The notes under the pieces were generated by a model. That model saw nothing but the letters and a program-made list of their open reading frames with translations. It was not told the origin of the DNA and made no database searches. DNA of 32,000 bases from Caldimicrobium thiodismutans (GTDB taxonomy: Bacteria > Desulfobacterota > Thermodesulfobacteria > Thermodesulfobacteriales > Thermodesulfobacteriaceae): the NCBI RefSeq assembly GCF_001548275.1, contig NZ_AP014945.1, positions 1,050,001-1,082,000 of the forward strand. Direction: 5' to 3'. A program made the translations under genes and the position numbers. Positions 12,661 through 23,322 of the stretch are shown here, piece by piece. The first letter of the stretch is position 1, and each line of letters starts with the position of its first letter.

Positions 12661-13968
12661 ATGCCTGATACCCTTAAAAATCAAGCTAAAAAGGGAGTAG
12701 TTACTGAGGAGATTAGGCTCTGTGCTGAAGCAGAAGGCCTCTCACCTGAGACCTTAGTTAATCAAATAGCTAAAGGGGAAGTTGTTCTTTGTAAGAACAA
12801 AAAAGCCAAGCTTTCAAAGCCCTGTGCTATTGGTAAAGGCTTAAAAACCAAGGTAAATGTGAATATTGGCACATCCAAAGACCGTCCTTATATTGAAGAG
12901 GAACTTAAAAAACTTGAAATTGCCCTTAGATACGGCACAGATGCAGTTATGGATCTTTCAACAGGTGGCCCTATTGATGAAATAAGAAAGGCTATTCGGG
13001 AGGCCTGTCCTGTTCCCCTTGGAACAGTTCCCATCTATCAAGCTGCCCTTGAGGCTGTTGAAAAACATAAAAAATCCATAGTGGAAATGACGGTTTCCGA
13101 AATCTTTGAGGTTATTCAAAAACAAGCAGAAGATGGCATTGACTTTATGACTGTGCACTGCGGAATTACTAAACATACCTTAGAGAGGCTTAAAAACAAG
13201 GAAAGAATCCTTGGTGTGGTTTCAAGGGGGGGCTCCTTTATAGTGGAATGGATGGTTTACAATAACAGGGAAAATCCTCTTTATGAGTATTTTGATGAGC
13301 TCCTTGATATAGCCTCAGCCTATGATATTACCCTTTCCCTTGGAGATGGAATCAGACCTGGATGTATAGCAGATGCAACCGATGGCCCCCAGATTCAAGA
13401 ATTAATTATTCTTGGAGAATTAACCTTGAGGGCCTGGGAAAGAGGGGTTCAAGTGATGATTGAAGGCCCTGGGCATGTTCCCTTAGATCAGATTACTGCT
13501 AATGTGAAACTTCAAAAAAGGCTCTGCCACAATGCTCCCTTTTATGTGCTCGGGCCTTTACCCACAGATATTGCCCCAGGCTATGATCACATAGTGGGTG
13601 CCATAGGAGGAGCCATTGCTGCAAGTGCCGGGGCTGATTTTCTTTGCTACTTAACTCCTGCTGAGCACTTGAGACTTCCCACCCTTGAAGATGTTAAAGA
13701 AGGCCTTATTGCCTCAAAAATTGCTGCTCATGTGGCAGATCTTGTGAAGGGAGTCAAAGGGGCCTGGGAATGGGATCTTGAAATGGCTAAAGCAAGAGCC
13801 CAACTTGACTGGGAACGCCAGATTGAACTTTCCATTGACCCAGAAAAAGCCCGTAAATATCGCCTTGAAGGTGGTATTTCAAGAAGTAAAGCCTGCTCTA
13901 TGTGCGGAGAATACTGCGCTATAAAAATCTATGAACATGCCTATAAGTTTTTAAAAGGCGCCCATTGA
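12661..13968 (+). CDS. thiC: Phosphomethylpyrimidine synthase ThiC (radical SAM)
   Basis: Conserved ThiC blocks (VNVNIGTS, DAVMDLSTGG, MTVHCG, MIEGPGHVP) and the C-terminal cluster motif CSMCGEYC. Start moved to ATG 12661, 9 nt after AAGGAG (12646-12651). The track start is TTG 12652. Confidence 0.92.
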   Translation: MPDTLKNQAKKGVVTEEIRLCAEAEGLSPETLVNQIAKGEVVLCKNKKAKLSKPCAIGKGLKTKVNVNIGTSKDRPYIEEELKKLEIALRYGTDAVMDLSTGGPIDEIRKAIREACPVPLGTVPIYQAALEAVEKHKKSIVEMTVSEIFEVIQKQAEDGIDFMTVHCGITKHTLERLKNKERILGVVSRGGSFIVEWMVYNNRENPLYEYFDELLDIASAYDITLSLGDGIRPGCIADATDGPQIQELIILGELTLRAWERGVQVMIEGPGHVPLDQITANVKLQKRLCHNAPFYVLGPLPTDIAPGYDHIVGAIGGAIAASAGADFLCYLTPAEHLRLPTLEDVKEGLIASKIAAHVADLVKGVKGAWEWDLEMAKARAQLDWERQIELSIDPEKARKYRLEGGISRSKACSMCGEYCAIKIYEHAYKFLKGAH

Positions 13969-14373
13969 ATGAGCCCTTAACGCAGTTAAGACCTCTTTAA
14001 AAATTTGATAATAAATATCTTTTTTTATTTCTTTGTAATATTTTTTGGCTGTTTCTTCATCATAAATCTGAACCAGAAATTTTCTTATAAGAAGCATTTC
14101 ATAGAGGTTTTCTTCATAATCCTGAGAAATAAGACCTTCCTTTAATAAAGATTCAAAACAACTTCTTGGGGAATAACATTCAATCCCGCGAAGGCACAAA
14201 AATTCCTTTATTGCCTTCCACATGGCTTCAAAGGTGTATTCAAATCTCTTGGTTAAAATCTCAATTTGAAAGTCCTCACTGAAAACTTCCTCAAATAGAG
14301 GATTTCCTAAGATTTCTTCAAATTTTCTAAATGCTCTCTCAAAGCGCTCAAGGCTCCTTCTGAACTTTTCCAT
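13951..14373 (-). CDS. Nucleotidyltransferase substrate-binding protein, HI0074 family (HEPN-superfamily four-helix bundle)
   Basis: N-terminus MEKFRRSLERFERAFRKFEEIL and the block IRKFLVQIYDEETA align by eye to the family motif R-N-x-x-x-H-x-Y-D-E. It sits immediately downstream of the minimal nucleotidyltransferase. Confidence 0.7.
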   Translation of the reverse strand: MEKFRRSLERFERAFRKFEEILGNPLFEEVFSEDFQIEILTKRFEYTFEAMWKAIKEFLCLRGIECYSPRSCFESLLKEGLISQDYEENLYEMLLIRKFLVQIYDEETAKKYYKEIKKDIYYQIFKEVLTALRAHSMGAF

Positions 14374-14681
14374 ATATATCCCTCTGCAATAATTTTTTCT
14401 ATAAATTCGGGATTTTTTATTCTTTTGAGATCAACCACTTCTATGGTTCTCAAAAGAGGAAGCCCCTCAAGGGCTTTCTCAATCTCTGCCAGAATTTTTG
14501 CTGAAAGTTTTTCTGAAGAAAATATGGCTACATCAATATCTGATGTCCTTCCAAATCCTCCCTCTATAAGGGACCCAAAAAAGATAATAAGACTCTTCTC
14601 AGGCAATAACCTCTCTAGGCTCGCCCCAACAAGACCTAAAATTCTCTCTTTCTCCTCTTTTACCCTCTCTTTTTCCTTCAT
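14307..14681 (-). CDS. Minimal nucleotidyltransferase (MNT, HI0073-like)
   Basis: The motif GSLIEGGFGRTSDIDVAIF fits G-S-x(9-10)-D-x-D of the pol-beta-type NTase fold. Confidence 0.8.
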   Translation of the reverse strand: MKEKERVKEEKERILGLVGASLERLLPEKSLIIFFGSLIEGGFGRTSDIDVAIFSSEKLSAKILAEIEKALEGLPLLRTIEVVDLKRIKNPEFIEKIIAEGYIWKSSEGALSALREHLENLKKS

Positions 14682-14705: not shown

Positions 14706-16304
14706 CTAAGTTTTTAGTTTACTTTTTGCCTTAAATAGCTTTATTGAAGCTCTCATCTTTAGAAATCCCCTTGACTTTAACAGAAATAGAGCAAGAAGAA
14801 AAAGGAAACCAAGAAGTCCCCAGAAAGCAACTGCCCGAAAGGTTTCTTGAAAACCCCAGCTTAAGGCTTGAACATACTGGGCCTTATAAAGAAGGGCGGA
14901 AACCTTTTTCTCTGCAAGTTCACCCGAAAAAAATTTTTCTGCAAAATAAGTCTTTTCTTGCAAAAATTGTTTTACTATTCCATAATTTTGAAGCTCGGTT
15001 ATGCGCAAAAAATTTTCATTGGTGTAGTATTCCAGATGATTGGTTGCCAGAGCTGTTCCAAAGGAGCCTCCAACAAAACGCTGGTAATGCATAAGAACCA
15101 CTCCAAGGCCTGTTAAAGGCCCAAGTTTTCGTAAAGAAATGGCAGTAAGGGGCGCAAAAAAGGTGCCCATTGAAATCCCAAGGGGTATACAGAGAAGAGA
15201 GGACTTCCAGGCTGGTGTGTAATAATTAAGCTGAGGAATAAGATAATAACTGGTAAAGATAAATATAAGGGAACTGAAAAGAAGAATTCTTCCCGGGGCA
15301 AAGCGATCAGAAAGATATCCTGAGATAACACTGAACGTTCCTATAAAACAGGCAAAAACAAGAATGTGAACCCCTGCCTGAAAAGTAGTAAGCCCTTTAA
15401 GGTTTTCATAATAGAGGGGAAGAAGATAAAAAATCTGATACATTCCAAAGCCAAGGGTAAAAAAGTGCATTCCCATGGGAAGGCCAAATTCAGGAATTTT
15501 ATAAATAGAGAGATTAAGAAGGGGTTTTTTTGAAAGGAGTTCACTCAGTAAATAAAGGACAAATCCAATAAGACTTACAAAAAGAAGTATCAGAATTAGA
15601 TCAGATTGAAACCAGCCAAGCTGTTGCCCTTTTGAAAGCATGATAAGAAGGGAGGTTGTAGCAACGGCAATAAAGAGATAACTTAAGTAATTAAAGTGAA
15701 AGATCTTTGATCTTCCAAGTTCTTTGGGGAGGTAAAGAAGGGCTGCTAAGAAATTGAGGATACCCACAGGGATATTCACAAAGAAAACCCAGCGCCAGCT
15801 TAAGTGTTCTGTTATAAATCCGCCAAGGGTTGGGCCAAGGGCAGGGGCAAAGCTTACTCCAAGACCAAAAATCCCCATAGCAAGCCCTCTTCTTTGCGGT
15901 GGATAAGAGGCAATCAAAATAGTCTGAGCAGAGGCTGCAATGAAGGCTTCCCCCAAGCCCTGAACCACCCTGAAAAAAATCATCTGAGGAAGATTTTGGG
16001 CGGTTCCACAAAAAAAACTTGAAATAGTAAAAATACCAAGGCCTGTTATAAAGGTATAGGGATACCCTATGAATCTTGCAAAATTTTCAGTAAAAAGAAG
16101 TCCTGTTGCAGCTGCCATCATATAACTTGTTATAACCCACTGAATGCCATAAAGATCCGTAGATAAAGGCCCCATCATTTTAGGAACAACTATATCCACA
16201 ATGGTGGTATCAAGAATAGCCATAAAAAAACCTACCATCACAATGATAGTAATGAGAATTCTTTCAACCCTGATGATTCTCTGATGAAAGGTTTCAAAAT
16301 CCAT
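14706..16304 (-). CDS. MFS transporter, DHA2 (EmrB/QacA) family, about 14 TM
   Basis: The N-terminal region FMAILDTTIVDIVVPKM...LYGIQWVITSYMMAAA...GRRG-like loop is typical of DHA2. It is paired with an upstream HlyD adaptor. Confidence 0.85.
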   Translation of the reverse strand: MDFETFHQRIIRVERILITIIVMVGFFMAILDTTIVDIVVPKMMGPLSTDLYGIQWVITSYMMAAATGLLFTENFARFIGYPYTFITGLGIFTISSFFCGTAQNLPQMIFFRVVQGLGEAFIAASAQTILIASYPPQRRGLAMGIFGLGVSFAPALGPTLGGFITEHLSWRWVFFVNIPVGILNFLAALLYLPKELGRSKIFHFNYLSYLFIAVATTSLLIMLSKGQQLGWFQSDLILILLFVSLIGFVLYLLSELLSKKPLLNLSIYKIPEFGLPMGMHFFTLGFGMYQIFYLLPLYYENLKGLTTFQAGVHILVFACFIGTFSVISGYLSDRFAPGRILLFSSLIFIFTSYYLIPQLNYYTPAWKSSLLCIPLGISMGTFFAPLTAISLRKLGPLTGLGVVLMHYQRFVGGSFGTALATNHLEYYTNENFLRITELQNYGIVKQFLQEKTYFAEKFFSGELAEKKVSALLYKAQYVQALSWGFQETFRAVAFWGLLGFLFLLALFLLKSRGFLKMRASIKLFKAKSKLKT

Positions 16305-16309
16305 AATTT

Positions 16310-17440
16310 TTAACGGACTCTTTTTATTTCAACCTCGCCACCAAGCCCAACCTTTAGAAGACCTCTATCTCCTTTAGTAATTTTAATTTTAACTGGAATT
16401 CTTTGGGCAAGTTTGGTAAACTCTCCTGCGGAGATATCTCTCGGGACAAGGGCAAAGGTTGCAGCTGAAGCTGGAAGTATTTCTTCAACTTCTCCTTCCC
16501 AGACCTTTCCTGGATAGGCATCAAGCCTTATTCGGGCATAGGCTCCTTTTTTAATTCCCTTAAGCTTTGTCTCTTCAAGAAGAACAAGGATATAAAAGGA
16601 CTCAGGATCAACCACAACATAGATAGGCTCCCCTGGAGCAATTACATCTCCCTCTGAGTGAAATTTCTTGGCTATAACTCCTGTGATGGGACTTTTAAGT
16701 TTGGTGTATTCATAATAAAGAAGGGCTTCTTCTTTTTGTTTTAGAAGGGCTTTTTCCTTATACTTTAATGCCTCTATCTGGGAAGCCAAACTTTTTACAG
16801 TAAAGATTTCATTTTCCAAAAGGGTGCGCGTTTTCTCAAGAGCCTTTATATCTCTTTCAATGGAATTTAATAGTTCCTTTTCAGCCTCAAGCTGATGGTT
16901 TAGCTCTTTTTCTTCTGTTTCTTTGGCCTCAAGACTTTGTTGAGAAATAAGGCCCTCTTTATAAAGGTTTTCAAGCCTAAGTCTATCCTTTCTTACTAAA
17001 TCAAGTCTTGCCTTTATAGCCTCAAGCTTGGCAATTTGAGCCCTTTTCTTGGCCTGGAGAGACTCAAGCTGTTTTTGAATCTGCTCAATTTTAAGAATTA
17101 TTTCCCTTTCAAGTTTTCTCTTTGAATCAAAAAGAGAGGCCCTCTGAGAAGAAACCTCTTTTACTGACTCCTCAAGCTGGGTAACCCTTTTTTCATAATC
17201 AAAGGGTTCAAGCTCTGCAAGGATTTCGCCCTCCTTTATCCAATCTCCCTCTTTTTTGTATAGCTTGATTAATTTTCCATTAATCTTTGGGAAACTAACA
17301 TAGACCAAACGATCTGCCTGAACAAAAACCGCATCTGTTACCGCATAATGATATCTTTTCCAGATAAAATAACCAAAAAGTGAAAGAAAAAAGAGAAGAA
17401 AAAAACCAAGAATGTAAATCCCTATTTTCTTTTTTTGCAT
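16310..17440 (-). CDS. HlyD/EmrA-family periplasmic adaptor
   Basis: One N-terminal TM segment, a long coiled-coil, then barrel-sandwich and lipoyl-like segments (SPITGVIAK..., GMPV-like tail). Confidence 0.85.
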   Translation of the reverse strand: MQKKKIGIYILGFFLLFFLSLFGYFIWKRYHYAVTDAVFVQADRLVYVSFPKINGKLIKLYKKEGDWIKEGEILAELEPFDYEKRVTQLEESVKEVSSQRASLFDSKRKLEREIILKIEQIQKQLESLQAKKRAQIAKLEAIKARLDLVRKDRLRLENLYKEGLISQQSLEAKETEEKELNHQLEAEKELLNSIERDIKALEKTRTLLENEIFTVKSLASQIEALKYKEKALLKQKEEALLYYEYTKLKSPITGVIAKKFHSEGDVIAPGEPIYVVVDPESFYILVLLEETKLKGIKKGAYARIRLDAYPGKVWEGEVEEILPASAATFALVPRDISAGEFTKLAQRIPVKIKITKGDRGLLKVGLGGEVEIKRVR

Positions 17441-17484
17441 AAGCGCCTTCCTTTAAATTTATGTTAGTGCTTACTTAACTTTTA

Positions 17485-17512
17485 AGTCTAAAGATCTAAT
17501 TCTTTTTGTCAA
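17485..17512 (-). promoter_or_regulatory. Putative promoter of the HlyD-MFS operon (TTGACA-N16-TAGACT)
   Basis: Minus strand TTGACA 17512-17507 and TAGACT 17490-17485. Confidence 0.4.
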
Positions 17513-17552
17513 GGTTGTGTATGCGTCCAGGTCTTTTGAGACTTAAATAGTA

Positions 17553-17574
17553 GGGGTTTAAAATTTTAAACCCC
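17553..17574. promoter_or_regulatory. Perfect 22-bp palindrome GGGGTTTAAAATTTTAAACCCC in the divergent control region
   Basis: The sequence equals its own reverse complement and is followed on the + strand by TTGAATTTTTTT. It could be an operator or an insulating terminator. Confidence 0.5.
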
Positions 17575-17810
17575 TTGAATTTTTTTGTGGGTCTGTTGTA
17601 GCACAGACATTCTTGTCTGTGTTTCTTTCATACATTGGAGTGTAATTTACCTCCACAGGCAAGATTGCCTGTGTTACTTTTACAGACTTGTAAAGCCTCT
17701 CTTGTATAGATATCTAATTCCTCTTTTACCACCCTTCCTTTTTTCTTGTAAGGATCTGAACTTATGCAGGGTTGTAAATCTTCAAAGGACTAAGACTTAA
17801 AAATTCCCTC

Positions 17811-17838
17811 TTGACTTTTTCATTTTTATAAGTAATCT
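17811..17838 (+). promoter_or_regulatory. Putative promoter of the selenopeptide/rSAM operon (TTGACT-N16-TAATCT)
   Basis: Same geometry as the two tRNA promoters in this window. It would give a 5' UTR of about 45 nt before ATG 17888. Confidence 0.4.
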
Positions 17839-17887
17839 CAATTAGTAAAGCATTTTTAATTATTATAATTTATAAGGAGGTGGGCTT

Positions 17888-18064
17888 ATGAAGGAAAGTT
17901 TAAGAAAGAGTTTGGAGAGTATTAAGCTTGAAGGACTTTTAAAAGAGATTGCCTTTTCTGAAGCCCCTATGGCAACCCTTTTCCCAAAAGGGACCTCTTC
18001 TTGAGGCTCAAGCTGAGGCGATAAGCCCAAAAGGAGCGGAGTTTCCGCTCTGAAAAATAACTAA
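17888..18064 (+). CDS. Putative selenocysteine-containing RiPP precursor 1 (58 codons, in-frame TGA at 18002-18004 and 18014-18016)
   Basis: Strong Shine-Dalgarno sequence AAGGAGGTG 7 nt before the ATG. Read-through product MKESLRKSLESIKLEGLLKEIAFSEAPMATLFPKGTSS-U-GSS-U-GDKPKRSGVSALKNN ends at TAA 18062-18064. If TGA is a stop, the product is 38 aa (17888-18004). Confidence 0.6.
18034..18050 (+). promoter_or_regulatory. Candidate bacterial SECIS-like hairpin (GAGCGGA-GUU-UCCGCUC)
   Basis: Perfect 7-bp stem with apical loop GUU. The loop starts 24 nt after the second UGA and 36 nt after the first, which falls inside my recollection of the usual bacterial UGA-to-apical-loop distance. Confidence 0.4.
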
Positions 18065-18088
18065 ATCTTTTTTAAGGAGGTGAGGGCG

Positions 18089-18331
18089 ATGAATAAAGAA
18101 AACCTTAAATCAACTCTAAAAGGTGTGAGTATTTCTGCCCTTTTAACCCTGGCCTTGAGTATTGGAACTCCTTCTGTTAGCCTTTCTCAACAGGGTAGCT
18201 CTGGTTGAGGCGGAAGTCCTAAGAAGGGCGGTGGATCTGCCCCTGCAAAGGAACAGCCTGCTAAAAATGCAACTGATAACGAAACTAAAAAGGACACTAA
18301 AAAGCCCAAGGGTAAAAGTGGCTGAGGTTAA
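18089..18331 (+). CDS. Putative selenocysteine-containing RiPP precursor 2 (80 codons, in-frame TGA at 18206-18208 and 18323-18325)
   Basis: Shine-Dalgarno sequence AAGGAGGTG 8 nt before the ATG. Read-through product MNKENLKSTLKGVSISALLTLALSIGTPSVSLSQQGSSG-U-GGSPKKGGGSAPAKEQPAKNATDNETKKDTKKPKGKSG-U-G ends at TAA 18329-18331. If TGA is a stop, the product is 39 aa. Confidence 0.6.
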
Positions 18332-18347
18332 TCTTTAAAAGGCCTCT

Positions 18348-19664
18348 TTGAGGTCTTATCTTAAATTTATGCTCTATTTCCAGCTAAACCCCTCCCTTGA
18401 AATTTCAAGGGAGGGGAATGAATTTATATTGTCTTTTTTCCAAAATGCAACAAAAATTTTTATAAAAGCAGATCCTTGGGATTTACTTGTAATTAAAATT
18501 CTTATAGAAGAACTTGATCCTTTAGAATTATCAAAAAAAGAAAATCTCACATTATCACTTATACTTCAAGCTTTTCACTCAGGCTTTGAAAAGGGTTATC
18601 TCATTAGAGAGGAAAGTAAAATCGTAAGAAAAGAGCCCCCTTTTCAGAGAGCCTTTTTTCCTGACGATACCTTTAGGGTTGCTGAGGTTTTTACTTTACA
18701 GTGGCATCTAACCAATAGATGTGATCTTCATTGCAAACACTGTTATGATCGATCAAGTGTTTCGGAATTATCTTTAGAAGATAATTTCAGAATCCTTGAG
18801 GATTTCTTTAGATTCTGTTCAGATATGAAAGTTCATGGACAGATAAGTTTTTCCGGAGGAAATCCTTTTATGTATCCCCATTTCTTTGAGCTTTACAGGT
18901 CTGCTTCTGAGATGGGATTTAGCCTTGCAATTCTTGGAAACCCTGTCTCAGAAACCCTTCTTGAGAGGCTCTGTAATATAGAAACCCCTGTATATTATCA
19001 GGTAAGTCTTGAGGGCTTAGAAAAGACTAATGATGAGATTCGGGGAAAAGGTCATTTTCAAAGAACTATTAAATTTTTAAAAATACTTAAAGATTTTGAA
19101 GTTCCCTCGGGAGTTATGATGACTGTTCACGAAAAAAATCTTGATGAGCTCATTCCCCTTGCTAAATATCTTGAGGGAAGGGTTGAGGTTTTTTCTTTTA
19201 ATAGGCTTTCTCTTTTCGGTGAAGGTAAAAAACTATCTCCTTCTGAAAGGGAAAAATTTTTTAAAGTTCTTGAAGAATACCTTGAGCTTTCTTTTGAATT
19301 GCCCTATCTTTCCCTTAAAGATAATTTTTTTAATTTTTTTCTTTATAAGAAAGGGTTGCCCTTTTGTGGAGGGTGTACAGGTTTTGGATGTGGGGCAGCT
19401 TTCAATTTTCTCACTCTTTTACCCAATGGAGAGGTCCATGCCTGCAGAAAATTCCCATCTCCCTTGGGAAATATTTTAAATAAATCTCTCAGTGAGATCT
19501 ATCATTCTAAAGAAGCTGAACTTTATAGGCTTGGGCCTGAGGCCTGTAACAATTGTATCCTTTATGGAGTTTGTAGAGGTTGTCTTGCGGTGATTTCAAG
19601 CTTTGGTTTGGATCTTACTAAAGATAAAGATCCTTACTGTCCTGGAAAACTTATCTCCCCTTGA
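18348..19664 (+). CDS. Radical SAM/SPASM-domain peptide maturase (SbtM-like by context)
   Basis: CX3CX2C motif NRCDLHCKHCY. The C-terminal region has 9 Cys (CGGCTGFGC...HAC...ACNNCILYGVCRGC...YCP), typical of SPASM auxiliary clusters. About 100 aa precede the core and could be a peptide-recognition domain. The start is uncertain, either TTG 18348 or ATG 18369. Confidence 0.85.
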   Translation: MRSYLKFMLYFQLNPSLEISREGNEFILSFFQNATKIFIKADPWDLLVIKILIEELDPLELSKKENLTLSLILQAFHSGFEKGYLIREESKIVRKEPPFQRAFFPDDTFRVAEVFTLQWHLTNRCDLHCKHCYDRSSVSELSLEDNFRILEDFFRFCSDMKVHGQISFSGGNPFMYPHFFELYRSASEMGFSLAILGNPVSETLLERLCNIETPVYYQVSLEGLEKTNDEIRGKGHFQRTIKFLKILKDFEVPSGVMMTVHEKNLDELIPLAKYLEGRVEVFSFNRLSLFGEGKKLSPSEREKFFKVLEEYLELSFELPYLSLKDNFFNFFLYKKGLPFCGGCTGFGCGAAFNFLTLLPNGEVHACRKFPSPLGNILNKSLSEIYHSKEAELYRLGPEACNNCILYGVCRGCLAVISSFGLDLTKDKDPYCPGKLISP

Positions 19665-20565: not shown

Positions 20566-20670
20566 AAAATGTAGGGTTCGAGCTTTTGAACCCCTACAAA
20601 TCATAAAAAGATTAAATAGGGGGTTGAAAGAGGCAGATTTAAATCTCAAAAAATGGATGCATACAAACTT

Positions 20671-20699
20671 TTGACAAATGGCTTTTTATACCTTAGAAT
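20671..20699 (+). promoter_or_regulatory. Near-consensus promoter (TTGACA-N17-TAGAAT) ending 7 nt before ATG 20707
   Basis: TTGACA 20671-20676, TAGAAT 20694-20699, no Shine-Dalgarno sequence before ATG 20707. Confidence 0.55.
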
Positions 20700-20706
20700 A
20701 ATAACT

Positions 20707-23322
20707 ATGCTAAAAAAATTTTTTACATCCCTTTTTCTTTTCTTTTCTTTCATTCCACTTTTAGGGGGATTTTTTATGCCAGAGGATTTGCATGCAGAAA
20801 AAGCCCTTGTTGAAAAAGTGATTGAAAAGAAGCTTCCCTCTGGGCTTACGGTTCTTTATATGCCTTTTAATAGAGAAAAAGTGGTTGCCGTTTACCTTTG
20901 TGTAAAAGTTGGCAGTAAATATGAATGGGATGAGGTTGCAGGGATTACCCATCTTATAGAACACATGATTTTTAAAGGAGGAGAGGGCCAAAAACCAGGA
21001 GAGGTAGCAGGAAAGGTAGAGGAAAAGGGAGGCTATATAAATGCCTTTACCTCTTATGATCAGACCTGTTATTATGTGGTAGGACCTGTTGAGGTTCTGG
21101 AAACAGCTTTTGAGGTGCTTTCTCAGGCAGTTTTTAAACCCTATTTTGATCCCGCAGAGCTTGAAAAGGAAAAGGAAGTGGTTATTGAAGAGATGAAAAT
21201 GCGCCTTGATAATCCCATGATTGTGCTCTATGAAGAGCTGATGAAAGCCTCCTATACCAAATATCCCTATAAAAGACCTATTATTGGTTTTGAAAATTCT
21301 GTTCGCTCAGTAAAAAGGGAAGATCTCTTTTATTTTATTAATCATTTTTATACACCTGAAAATATGGTTCTTATTGTTACAGGTGATATTTCAGAAGAGG
21401 AATTAGATAAACAGCTTGAAAAATATTTTTCAAAACTTCCTAAAAGAACTTTAAAGAAAGTGACCTTTCCTGAGGAACCCTATGTTAATGAGCCAGAACT
21501 TAAGTGGGTGGAAAGAAAAGTAAAGGAATCCTATTTTGCCTTTACCTTTCCAGCTCCCTCTATCCATGAAGATTCAGCACCTCTTATGGATCTTATAGCT
21601 GAAATCCTTGGTGGAGGAGAATCCTCAAGGTTATATTTAAAATTAAAGAGAAAACTAAATCTTGTTAAAACTATTTCAGCCTCTGCTTTTAACCCTGATG
21701 GCCCGGGTTTATTTGAAATCATGGGAACTGCATCTCCAGAAAATTTTCAAAAAATTATTGAAGAAACCTTAAAAGAAATTGAGAGATTCAAAAAGGAAGG
21801 TCCTACTCTTAATGAGCTTGAGAGAGCAAAAACTCAAGTTTTATCTACCTTTATTTATTCTCAGGAGACCGCAGATGGTCTTTCAAGGTCTCTTGCTACC
21901 TTTCAACTCACAAGAGGCAATTATAAAGATCTTCTCTGGTATAAGGACCAAATTAAAAGGGCAACCCCTGAGGACTTAAGAATTTTTGCCCAGCGTTTTT
22001 TGAATACCCATAAACTTGTCACAGTTTTCCTTTCAGAAAAAACCCTTTTTGATAAAGGGGCTTATAAAAAAACCCTTGCCAAAACTTTTAAGGAATCCTC
22101 TCTTAAATCTTTCACCCTTGATAATGGATTAAAGGTTATCCTTTATCCCAGACATGATGTGCCAGCTGTGGGTATTTCTCTTGTTTTTCCAGGGGGGGTT
22201 AGATTTGAAAATCAAGATAATAATGGTCTCTATCAGGCGCTGTCCCTTCTCTGGACCAGGGGAACTAAAAAACACACTGCTGAAGAAATTTCTGAGGCCC
22301 TTGAGGGTCTTGGTGCAAGCATTAAGGGCTTTACAGGAAGAAATACCTTTGGACTTAAAGCCCTGACCCTTTCAAACAAATTACCTGAGGTGCTGGATCT
22401 CTTCCATGAGATTCTTCTTAACCCCTCCTTTAAAGAAGAAGAGATAGAAAAGGCCCGCCCTGAACTTTTATCTCTCCTCTATCAACAGGAAGATCAGCCC
22501 TTTTATCTTGCCCTTAAGGAATTTTTAAAGGACTTTTTTCCTGATCATCCCTATGGACTAAACCAAGCAGGCTCAAAGAACTTTTATCTCACCTTTACCT
22601 CTAAAGACTTGGTTTCTGCTTATTCTAAAATGGTTAATCCTGAAAGAGGCGTTTTAGTTGTAACAGGTGATTTTGAAGTTGAATTTCTAAAGAACAAACT
22701 GACAGAACTTTTAAAGGATTGGAAGCCTAAAAAAACGGATATTCGTGAAGAACCTGAACCACCCTCGCCCAGGGATTCCATAAAGAGGGTCAAAAAAGAT
22801 AGTTTTCAGACCCAGATCCTACTTGGTTTTCAGGTTCCAGGTCTTCTAAGCAAGGATCGTGTTGTCCTGGAAGTTTTAAATAGTGCCATTTCAGGTCAGG
22901 ACGGAAGGCTTTTTAGAATCTTAAGAGATGAGAGATCTCTTGCCTATGCAGTTACTTCCTTTATGCTTCTTTATCCCAAAAAGTCAGCCCTTATCTTTTA
23001 TATAGCCTGTTCTCCTGAAAAGGAAAAAGAAGCTGTTGCTGGCTTTTTTGAAATTCTTGAAAAAATTAAAAAAGAGGGGCTCAGCGCTGATGAATTGGAG
23101 AGGGGGAAAAATAGACTCCTCGGGAGACATAGGCTCTCTCTTCAGAGCAATCTTGCCAAGGCTGAGGATATGGCAGTAAATGAGGTGCTGGGTCTGGGCT
23201 GGAATTACTCTGAAAAATATGAAGCCCTTGTAAAAGGTGTAAACTCAAAAAGTATTAGAAAGGCCATTCAAGAATATTTAGATCAAAACAAGGCCTTTCT
23301 TTTAATCCTTGGTAAGGAGTAA
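20707..23322 (+). CDS. Secreted two-unit M16 (pitrilysin/insulinase) zinc peptidase
   Basis: HxxEH zinc motif GITHLIEHMIFKG in the first half, and a second M16-like half without the motif. Start moved to ATG 20707, which gives the signal-peptide-like N-terminus MLKKFFTSLFLFFSFIPLLGG. The track start 20653 lies upstream of the promoter. Confidence 0.85.
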   Translation: MLKKFFTSLFLFFSFIPLLGGFFMPEDLHAEKALVEKVIEKKLPSGLTVLYMPFNREKVVAVYLCVKVGSKYEWDEVAGITHLIEHMIFKGGEGQKPGEVAGKVEEKGGYINAFTSYDQTCYYVVGPVEVLETAFEVLSQAVFKPYFDPAELEKEKEVVIEEMKMRLDNPMIVLYEELMKASYTKYPYKRPIIGFENSVRSVKREDLFYFINHFYTPENMVLIVTGDISEEELDKQLEKYFSKLPKRTLKKVTFPEEPYVNEPELKWVERKVKESYFAFTFPAPSIHEDSAPLMDLIAEILGGGESSRLYLKLKRKLNLVKTISASAFNPDGPGLFEIMGTASPENFQKIIEETLKEIERFKKEGPTLNELERAKTQVLSTFIYSQETADGLSRSLATFQLTRGNYKDLLWYKDQIKRATPEDLRIFAQRFLNTHKLVTVFLSEKTLFDKGAYKKTLAKTFKESSLKSFTLDNGLKVILYPRHDVPAVGISLVFPGGVRFENQDNNGLYQALSLLWTRGTKKHTAEEISEALEGLGASIKGFTGRNTFGLKALTLSNKLPEVLDLFHEILLNPSFKEEEIEKARPELLSLLYQQEDQPFYLALKEFLKDFFPDHPYGLNQAGSKNFYLTFTSKDLVSAYSKMVNPERGVLVVTGDFEVEFLKNKLTELLKDWKPKKTDIREEPEPPSPRDSIKRVKKDSFQTQILLGFQVPGLLSKDRVVLEVLNSAISGQDGRLFRILRDERSLAYAVTSFMLLYPKKSALIFYIACSPEKEKEAVAGFFEILEKIKKEGLSADELERGKNRLLGRHRLSLQSNLAKAEDMAVNEVLGLGWNYSEKYEALVKGVNSKSIRKAIQEYLDQNKAFLLILGKE

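Follow-up and report, generated by a model that had tools for sequence, protein, structure and literature searches.

The 32,000-nt stretch of Caldimicrobium thiodismutans DNA analyzed here (NZ_AP014945.1, positions 1,050,001 to 1,082,000; the window, whose own positions are used as coordinates throughout) contains, on the plus strand at 17888 to 18064, a short gene in which two in-frame UGA codons are followed by one strong RNA hairpin. We call this gene precursor 1. It leads a gene cluster that continues with sbtA, encoding a canonical selenopeptide precursor, and sbtM, encoding a thio(seleno)oxazole maturase. Our preferred reading, which we put at a probability of about 0.45, is that precursor 1 is a real, translated second precursor of the SbtA type and that both UGAs are read as selenocysteine (Sec) by way of the hairpin at 18033 to 18051. 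That the gene is a real SbtA-like selenopeptide precursor with a Sec insertion sequence (SECIS) is highly likely; that the same hairpin decodes both UGAs is a tentative proposal, held at somewhat under even odds.

The gene starts with an ATG behind the strong Shine-Dalgarno sequence AAGGAGGTG (17874 to 17882, plus strand), which ends 5 nt 5′ of the ATG and has its GGAGG core 7 nt before it. The in-frame translation of 17888 to 18064 reads MKESLRKSLESIKLEGLLKEIAFSEAPMATLFPKGTSS, UGA, GSS, UGA, GDKPKRSGVSALKNN, and stop, that is, a hydrophilic leader of 38 codons, the core SS-U-GSS-U-GDKPKRSGVSALKNN, and a terminal TAA (18062 to 18064). Both putative Sec codons are invariant in relatives; UGA1 (18002 to 18004) lies 36 nt from the hairpin loop and 28 nt from the stem, and UGA2 (18014 to 18016) lies 24 nt from the loop and 16 nt from the stem. 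The first-pass annotation of this DNA, made from the sequence alone, had named these TGA positions, the open frame, the hairpin, and the loop spacings of 36 and 24 nt, all of which translation and folding proved accurate. Its proposal of a peptide precursor with UGAs as Sec codons and a SECIS-like hairpin is well supported by the families of the neighboring genes, by conservation, and by covariation. The duplicated TGAGGC hexamer to which it drew attention is present twice here (18002 to 18007 and 18014 to 18019) but is not conserved, its counterparts in relatives being TGAGGT/TGAGGG or TGAAGT/TGAGGG, and it carries no weight. Public gene calls give precursor 1 as a 38-amino-acid hypothetical protein only. 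Two alternative open reading frames (ORFs) over the same DNA (plus strand, 17949 to 18053; minus strand, 17863 to 18030) were considered and set aside: their extents are not conserved, one or the other is broken by stops in loci L001 and L002, both run on without stops in the L003 clade, and it is frame 1 that fits the substitution pattern.

An in-frame UGA, a Gly/Ser-rich core, and then a SECIS-like hairpin are the traits of the SbtA family, and precursor 1 has all three. It found no match in NCBIfam or Pfam and, with U written as C or X, none at an E value of ≤1 to the SbtA model TIGR04081 (cut-off, 30.5 bits). Profile-profile comparison of the precursor-1 orthologues with SbtA sequences by hhalign gave a probability of 93% and an E value of 3e-7 over 51 columns, with a template alignment that took in short B-type precursors of other Caldimicrobium metagenome-assembled genomes (MAGs). 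The leader up to the first U is 38 residues long in precursor 1 and 39 in SbtA. Judged by these comparisons, precursor 1 is a divergent sbtA paralogue in which a hydrophilic leader replaces the hydrophobic one. The next gene, canonical sbtA or precursor 2 (18089 to 18331, plus strand), scores 32.1 bits on TIGR04081 and translates as MNKENLKSTLKGVSISALLTLALSIGTPSVSLSQQGSSG-U-GGSPKK...KGKSG-U-G, with UGAs at 18206 to 18208 and 18323 to 18325. It is followed by sbtM (18369 to 19664, plus strand; 431 amino acids as annotated), whose product has both the PF04055 (Radical_SAM) and PF13186 (SPASM) domains, is 100% identical to C. thiodismutans SbtM, and scores 558.8 bits (cut-off, 350) on NCBIfam TIGR04082, titled "thio(seleno)oxazole modification radical SAM maturase SbtM." TIGR04081 and TIGR04082 are Haft's "selenobiotic" family.

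Close relatives were collected by exact-protein look-ups and a genome scan; a metagenome scan with SbtM returned distant relatives only (≤53% identity). Precursor 1 occurs at the same position in nine distinct related sequences with SbtM identities of 69 to 100% (L001=L084, L002, L003, L164=L165, L166=L167, L168=L169, L170, and L171), a handful of clades in all, so that the covariation events described below rest on few independent changes. The order precursor 1-sbtA-sbtM is identical in the window and all relatives. Both TGAs and the hairpin are kept in the nine and the frame is intact in eight, which have an ATG, a leader of 38 or 39 codons, U-x3-U, and a frame open to a TAA. The start codon is found in 9/9, and a Shine-Dalgarno-like sequence is present in the four that were aligned. 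The exception is L170 (403 to 567, 89% identical to precursor 1), where a 1-nt deletion in the CCTTCTTCTT run right before UGA1 causes the gene to be called as a 54-amino-acid protein in the +1 frame. Since the deletion lies inside the CCTTCTTCTT run and the contig is short (a single contig of 1.8 kb), it may be an assembly error; it may also be a real frameshift allele.

Site variability was counted among seven orthologues. The leader varies at 76 of 114 sites (67%), distributed over codon positions as 25/18/33 of 38, which is a coding pattern. In the 36 nt that run from UGA2 through the hairpin, 6 sites vary (17%; Fisher p = 2e-7 against the leader), and the third codon positions there vary at 2 of 12 sites versus 33 of 38 in the leader (Fisher p = 1.5e-5). 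Between the two UGAs the changes fall 1/0/3 on the codon positions and are thus mostly synonymous, which fits in-frame decoding beyond UGA1. On the strength of such comparisons, UGA1 and UGA2 are very probably read as Sec. These data also bear on the idea that precursor 1 is non-functional, a decaying sbtA duplicate with a chance or leftover hairpin, as the missing TIGR04081 match, the L170 deletion before UGA1, and a local fold z-score of just -2.2 might suggest. Conservation of the start in 9/9 and of leader length, TGAs, frame, and stop in 8/9 across this range of SbtM identities, the coding pattern of leader substitutions, and the covarying hairpin all speak against decay, and the L170 deletion is possibly an artifact of assembly. 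The conservation data already largely refute this idea, which we regard as highly improbable.

The hairpin itself (18033 to 18051, plus strand), GGAGCGGA-GUU-UCCGCUCU, encodes part of K-R-S-G-V-S-A-L and has 8 bp (18033 to 18040 with 18044 to 18051), the outermost pair being G-U in this genome. Alone it folds with -11.7 kcal/mol at 37°C and -3.7 kcal/mol at 75°C, the latter presumably near the growth temperature of C. thiodismutans. The 86-nt segment from 17990 to 18075 folds into three helices with z = -2.2, and 5 of 200 shuffled sequences are equally stable; as the local fold is only modestly unusual, it is conservation and covariation in relatives that raise the hairpin above chance. One clade, L003, has GGAACGGA/UCCGUUCC for GGAGCGGA/UCCGCUCC, a G-C to A-U double change made by two non-synonymous substitutions. 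Codon for codon (K-R-S/G-G-V/G-S/A-A), the hairpin is homologous to three other sets: the first-UGA hairpins of sbtA in the same genomes, those of the L085, L086, and L172 precursors (Caldimicrobium MAGs), and that of L171. Across 15 homologous hairpins, in alignments of segments centered on the best hairpin (a bias that favors structure), 89% of cells hold standard pairs versus 78% in shuffles (0 of 500 as high), and 6 of the 8 pairs change on both sides (equaled by 4 of 500 shuffles); slid registers are 34 to 60% paired.

Against the bacterial SECIS consensus model (PMC13188914), the hairpin agrees at each point. For the loop of 3 to 9 nt the hairpin has 3 nt (GUU), which become 5 nt (AGUUU) once the A-U closing pair is open, as at 75°C; the stem of 4 to 16 bp has 8 bp; the G at loop position 1 or 2 (N1-G-[G/U]-N-N2) appears as A-G-U-U-U with the A-U closing pair; the minimum free energy (MFE) of ≤-7.5 kcal/mol is -11.7 at 37°C; and the structure is conserved with compensatory changes, as seen in the hairpin-centered alignment. 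For the UGA distance of 16 to 37 nt, the 24 nt of UGA2 are typical and the 36 nt of UGA1 are at the upper edge; the SbtA family has its mode at 17 to 21 nt, and the Caldimicrobium clade has 20 to 27 nt. The corresponding sbtA codon, UGA 18206, stands 23 nt before the loop of its own homologous SECIS-type hairpin (GGGCGG-UGGAU-CUGCCC, 18226 to 18242, plus strand), and the stem begins 16 nt after UGA2 versus 17 nt in sbtA. There is no doubt that the precursor-1 hairpin has the position of a SECIS for UGA2. A lower stem was looked for around it and none was found, both flanks being A-rich. Its interpretation as an intrinsic terminator was rejected, as no U-tract follows the stem and a terminator scan did not call it.

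For UGA1, no hairpin of ≥5 bp follows other than this one, which we regard as the likeliest element for that codon as well. The first-pass annotation had proposed that a single element could in principle serve both codons. That is plausible, with both UGAs within 16 to 37 nt, tandem UGAs in at least five other SbtA lineages, and Cys-Cys orthologues that lack the hairpin, but the two hairpins of sister lineages and a mini-stem here point to a serious rival. The comparative data come from a survey of 93 distinct SbtA-like precursors encoded beside SbtM homologues at 163 loci. Among 246 UGAs other than upstream members of tandems, 186 have the loop of their best hairpin 16 to 26 nt downstream, with the mode at 17 to 21. 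Upstream tandem members, found in five further SbtA lineages, have no hairpin of their own and stand 26 to 41 nt from the shared loop (35 nt in L015, L043, L115, L128, and L144; 26 nt in L117 and L133; 41 nt in L035 and L051), compared with 36 nt in precursor 1, so that tandem UGAs before one hairpin are found in at least six SbtA lineages with precursor 1 included. In L018 and L020, orthologues of the L043 group, TGC stands at both tandem positions and exactly the 27-nt hairpin segment is missing.

A further comparison is offered by 20 SbtA genes (loci include L016, L022, L030, L037, L039, L041, L053, L059, L073, and L114) that end in ...KSG-U-(S/G/A/N)-TGA, beyond which the sequence is no longer peptide-like. 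A hairpin with a G-first loop lies past the terminal TGA, 16 to 20 nt from the Sec codon and 10 to 14 nt from the terminal TGA. By their sequence, these would be pairs of UGAs 6 nt apart with opposite fates before one hairpin, consistent with a rule in which distance to the loop decides between recoding and termination. In its most general form, the proposal is that a single SelB-binding hairpin programs two Sec insertions 12 nt apart as a built-in, recurrent property of the SbtA family, with a UGA 16 to 37 (41) nt upstream of the loop recoded and one at 10 to 14 nt terminating. We consider this generalization possible but doubtful.

Several observations weigh against the preferred reading, and most bear on the sharing of the hairpin. 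In sister Caldimicrobium lineages (L085_A, L085_B, L086_B, L172_A, and L172_B; L172-174), two UGAs 15 nt apart come with two hairpins: HP1, of 5 to 6 bp, directly after UGA2 with its loop 20 to 21 nt from UGA1, and HP2, 26 to 27 nt from UGA2. In place of HP1, GGC/GGG-GAUAA(G)-(G)CCC is found in the C. thiodismutans clade and GGG-GAAA-CCC in L171, each starting about 12 nt past UGA1. The main hairpin is the sole strong local structure, as the first-pass annotation held, but it is not the only one: between UGA2 and the main hairpin, folding and comparison with relatives place a weak mini stem-loop, GGC-GAUAA-GCC (18017 to 18027, plus strand; extendable to 18014 to 18029). Synonymous sites in this mini-stem spacer vary at 1 of 5 positions versus 33 of 38 in the leader (p = 0.005). 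To these points are added the structure-favoring choice of aligned segments noted above, the difficulty of telling peptide-level from RNA-level selection in a near-invariant core, and a scan of 17000 to 19000 against Rfam that found no SECIS family at E ≤ 10, a result of little weight. To our knowledge, the Rfam SECIS models do not cover such short bacterial hairpins. A search of the 32-kb window also found no sel genes, no tRNA-Sec, and no other selenoprotein genes. Finally, about 40% of ribosomes insert Sec at each UGA in Escherichia coli, where SelB has to be recruited early to the SECIS and late recruitment loses out to release factor 2 (RF2) (PMC4513850). Unless SelB can reload very fast, the same hairpin should therefore be inefficient in directing a second insertion four codons on.

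The sister lineages suggest a division of labor in which the mini-stem, as a remnant or minimal form of HP1, serves UGA1 and the main hairpin serves UGA2 only. Five of these precursors (L085_A to L172_B, as listed) have the 5- to 6-bp hairpin right after UGA2 together with the second one, the window clade and L171 carry small G/C stems in its place, 4 of the 5 third positions in the spacer do not vary, versus 5 of 38 in the leader, and the mini-stem begins 12 nt after UGA1, the spacing of the E. coli type (PMC8659212). Yet with three G-C pairs and -3.3 kcal/mol at 37°C it is predicted to be unfolded at 75°C, and it departs from the bacterial SECIS model (PMC13188914) in its stem (3 bp, <4), its spacing (15 nt, <16), its MFE (above -7.5 kcal/mol), and its loop (GAUAA, with GA rather than G[G/U]). 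Its runs of G and C correspond to Gly and Pro codons in a peptide motif, U-G-x-x-P, that also follows the single sbtA UGA, where a homologous 12-nt segment is found, and no stem of this kind occurs in distant SbtA lineages that have tandem UGAs. The notion that the mini-stem is exclusive to tandem UGAs was dropped on this account, as L171 sbtA, too, has a 5-bp stem in that segment. We judge separate elements for the two codons unlikely. Within the Caldimicrobium clade the length of the G/C-stem segment (12 or 15 nt) tracks the spacing between UGA1 and UGA2 (12 or 15 nt), and under the preferred reading the stem after UGA2 could act as a foldable spacer that holds the hairpin at a working distance for both codons.

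The E. coli efficiencies (PMC4513850) lend themselves to another account, in which UGA1 mostly terminates: the 38-amino-acid leader peptide would be the main product, the two-Sec peptide a minor, selenium-dependent one, and the gene a decoy or a selenium-responsive upstream ORF for sbtA-sbtM. Gene callers give just the 38-residue product, the spacing of 36 nt is at the limit of the consensus window, and late SelB recruitment at about 40% insertion per UGA would lose to RF2. This account has to contend with a frame that stays open past UGA1 in relatives (L170, with its 1-nt deletion, excepted), the mostly synonymous inter-UGA changes (1/0/3), and the repeated occurrence of tandems in independent SbtA lineages. 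If ribosomes seldom got past UGA1, there would be no point in keeping UGA2 and its hairpin, 24 nt further on, invariant or compensated. The hairpin, with no U-tract after it, also lacks the anatomy of an attenuator. Predominant termination at UGA1 is, in our estimate, quite unlikely.

One or both UGAs might instead be recoded to something other than Sec, either to Cys by a SelC*-type tRNA(ReC) that also uses SelB and a SECIS or by near-cognate Trp/Cys read-through. Genes for tRNA(ReC) are enriched in genomes with UXXU hydrogenases (PMC13582414), and in vitro SbtM takes substrates with either Cys or Sec (PMC9204691). Here, no SelC*-type tRNA lies within the window, and TGC or TGT would suffice for Cys, as in L018 and L020, a switch that no precursor-1 relative has made. 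We rate non-Sec decoding as very unlikely. Reassignment of TGA across the genome was rejected: TGA serves as an ordinary stop in 7 of the window's 24 large ORFs, so that recoding, if it occurs, must be local.

The gene anatomy, the families of the neighbors, the conservation, and the covariation of the hairpin are shown directly by these data, whereas Sec insertion, binding of SelB, use of one hairpin by both codons, and modification by SbtM are inferred. Under the preferred reading, the ribosome would translate the 38-residue leader, the presumed recognition sequence for SbtM, while the complex of SelB, GTP, and Sec-tRNA(Sec) docks on the hairpin at 18033 to 18051 ahead of its arrival. With UGA1 in the A site the stem would be 28 nt downstream, and the spacer would loop out or fold, as the mini-stem, so that SelB reaches the A site. 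Once four more codons had brought UGA2 into the A site, the stem would be 16 nt downstream, and a second ternary complex would deliver Sec. The ribosome would then melt and translate the hairpin (K-R-S-G-V-S-A) and terminate at TAA 18062. SbtM would recognize the SbtA-like leader and turn each Ser-Sec unit into a selenooxazole, and export by a divergently encoded transporter pair may follow, although this last step is speculative.

That pair consists of a major facilitator superfamily (MFS) transporter and an HlyD-type membrane-fusion protein (14706 to 17440, minus strand, divergent from the precursor genes), and it holds the same position in L001, L003, L164, and L166. Downstream, a two-module M16 peptidase (20653 to 23322, plus strand) is present in the window, in L003, and probably in L002; it is not found in L001. 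These are a candidate exporter and a candidate leader peptidase, respectively. Beside the MFS gene, overlapping ORFs at 13951 to 14681 (minus strand) form a HepT-like/nucleotidyltransferase (MNT-type) toxin-antitoxin pair unrelated to precursor 1.

The second Sec codon of sbtA, UGA 18323, has a TAA stop merely two codons on. The sole hairpin in its range, AAGGCCUC-UUU-GAGGUCUU (18339 to 18357, plus strand), lies wholly past that stop and just 5′ of sbtM, with its loop, which has no G, 21 nt after the UGA; it is kept, with a G-U variant, in L001 and L003. It could act as a 3′-located SECIS, as an attenuator that separates the precursors from sbtM, or as both. The sbtM reading frame is open from TTG 18348 (438 codons, 18348 to 19664), and SbtM aligns with model positions 103 to 516 only of TIGR04082; in the Caldimicrobium clade it has about 431 amino acids versus about 525 elsewhere, with about 100 N-terminal family residues missing. 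A 12-bp hairpin, CCCCUCCCUUGA-AAUU-UCAAGGGAGGGG, occupies sbtM codons 7 to 16 (18389 to 18416; surrounding 111-nt fold, z = -4.1) and is kept with compensatory changes as CCCCACUCUU/AAGGGUGGGG in L085 and CCUACUCUU/AAGAGUAGG in L172. At the protein level these changes pair S/E with T/V, and the 3′ arm is Shine-Dalgarno-like; the hairpin may be a translational control element.

Elsewhere in the family, 46 of 86 SbtA leaders (loci L004 to L163) have a lipobox-like L-x-[GAS]-C at residues of about 25 to 30 and so resemble the signal peptides of lipoproteins. A TGA stands in place of the lipobox Cys in L035 and L051 (L-N-A-U and L-S-A-U). The Caldimicrobium sbtA genes have no Cys at this position, and precursor 1 has no hydrophobic segment. 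The sbtA core of L002 (961 to 1233) is internally duplicated, with two copies of QGGSG-U-GGTPKKGGG that each contain a UGA; the hairpin is clear for the second copy and weaker and altered for the first, and the C-terminal KSG-U-G is replaced by ...KKIEGC. UGA-plus-hairpin modules thus seem to be duplicated as units.

The usual teaching on bacterial Sec insertion is that one UGA goes with one SECIS next to it, set at a fixed distance, and this rule is also the reason that proteins with several Sec residues are difficult to produce in bacteria. Should a single hairpin really serve two codons 12 nt apart, the permitted distance is a window and not a point, SelB has to reload within four codons, and short natural double-Sec cassettes exist. 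The SbtA family provides a compact natural test set of one-hairpin tandems, two-hairpin tandems, hairpin-less Cys versions, and stop-UGAs too close to a hairpin, and Caldimicrobium has two different classes of precursor in its thio(seleno)oxazole clusters. What is new here is this second class, which lies outside TIGR04081 and is misannotated as a 38-mer, and the family-wide occurrence of tandem UGAs before one hairpin with its natural controls. The SbtA/SbtM system and its SECIS, close Sec pairs, and the idea of a shared SECIS (PMC13582414) are known already.

Among systems in which several Sec codons share few elements, eukaryotic selenoprotein P, with many UGAs and two SECIS elements that lie within its 3′ untranslated region (UTR), has fewer SECIS elements than Sec codons, as precursor 1 would, and faces the same problem of processivity. 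It relies on SBP2 and eEFSec and on kink-turn SECIS elements far downstream in the 3′ UTR, so the likeness is one of analogy only. Closer in mechanism is E. coli fdhF with SelB, where an in-ORF hairpin downstream of the UGA also has G-U in its apical loop and, with the UGA in the A site, the stem likewise stays outside the ribosome. The minimal E. coli stem, however, begins 11 nt past the UGA, with one element for one codon, whereas the stem in precursor 1 begins 16 nt after UGA2 and 28 nt after UGA1; the precursor-1 hairpin also has neither a lower stem nor a bulged U.

The first-pass annotation had held that two closely spaced Sec codons decoded from one SECIS would be unusual. The statement is tempered by the UxxU and UxxxxU motifs cataloged in predicted bacterial selenoproteins (PMC13188914) and by a 2026 in silico study of UXXU hydrogenases, which raised one downstream SECIS for both UGAs and noted that tRNA(ReC) might insert Cys (PMC13582414). 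We found no experimental test in the literature of a shared SECIS or of Cys insertion by tRNA(ReC) at UXXU. The UXXU Group 4 [NiFeSe] hydrogenases and the UxxU and UxxxxU proteins resemble precursor 1 in having two UGAs 9 to 15 nt apart before one predicted SECIS, and the caveat of Cys insertion by tRNA(ReC) applies equally. They differ in being large redox enzymes with metal-binding or redox CxxC-derived motifs, whereas precursor 1 would be a ribosomally synthesized and post-translationally modified peptide with a core destined for heterocyclization. The SbtA family, unlike these proteins, also has natural comparators in its two-hairpin tandems, its Cys versions without a hairpin, and its stop-UGAs near a hairpin.

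The nearest comparison is with the SbtA/SbtM system itself. SbtM was characterized by the Bandarian laboratory (PMC9204691); in vitro it converts a Gly-Cys or Gly-Sec unit of its peptide to a thio- or selenooxazole, and natural SbtA peptides are thought to carry at least two Sec residues (PMC9204691, PMC11002830). Precursor 1 departs from this system in its leader, which is hydrophilic rather than hydrophobic or signal-peptide-like, and in being missed by TIGR04081; in having Ser before each Sec, compared with the Gly of "GGUG" and the Gly before Cys or Sec in the published SbtM substrate (PMC9204691); and in its short core, with two Sec residues 4 positions apart and one hairpin that agrees with the SECIS model. 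The SbtM proteins of the Caldimicrobium clade differ from the rest of their family in the N-terminal model residues, about 100, that they lack. Precursor 1 shares with the system its place directly 5′ of canonical sbtA and sbtM, its leader-core design with about 38 leader residues up to the first U and Sec codons in a Gly/Ser-rich core, and a hairpin encoded a few codons downstream that is homologous in sequence to that of sbtA.

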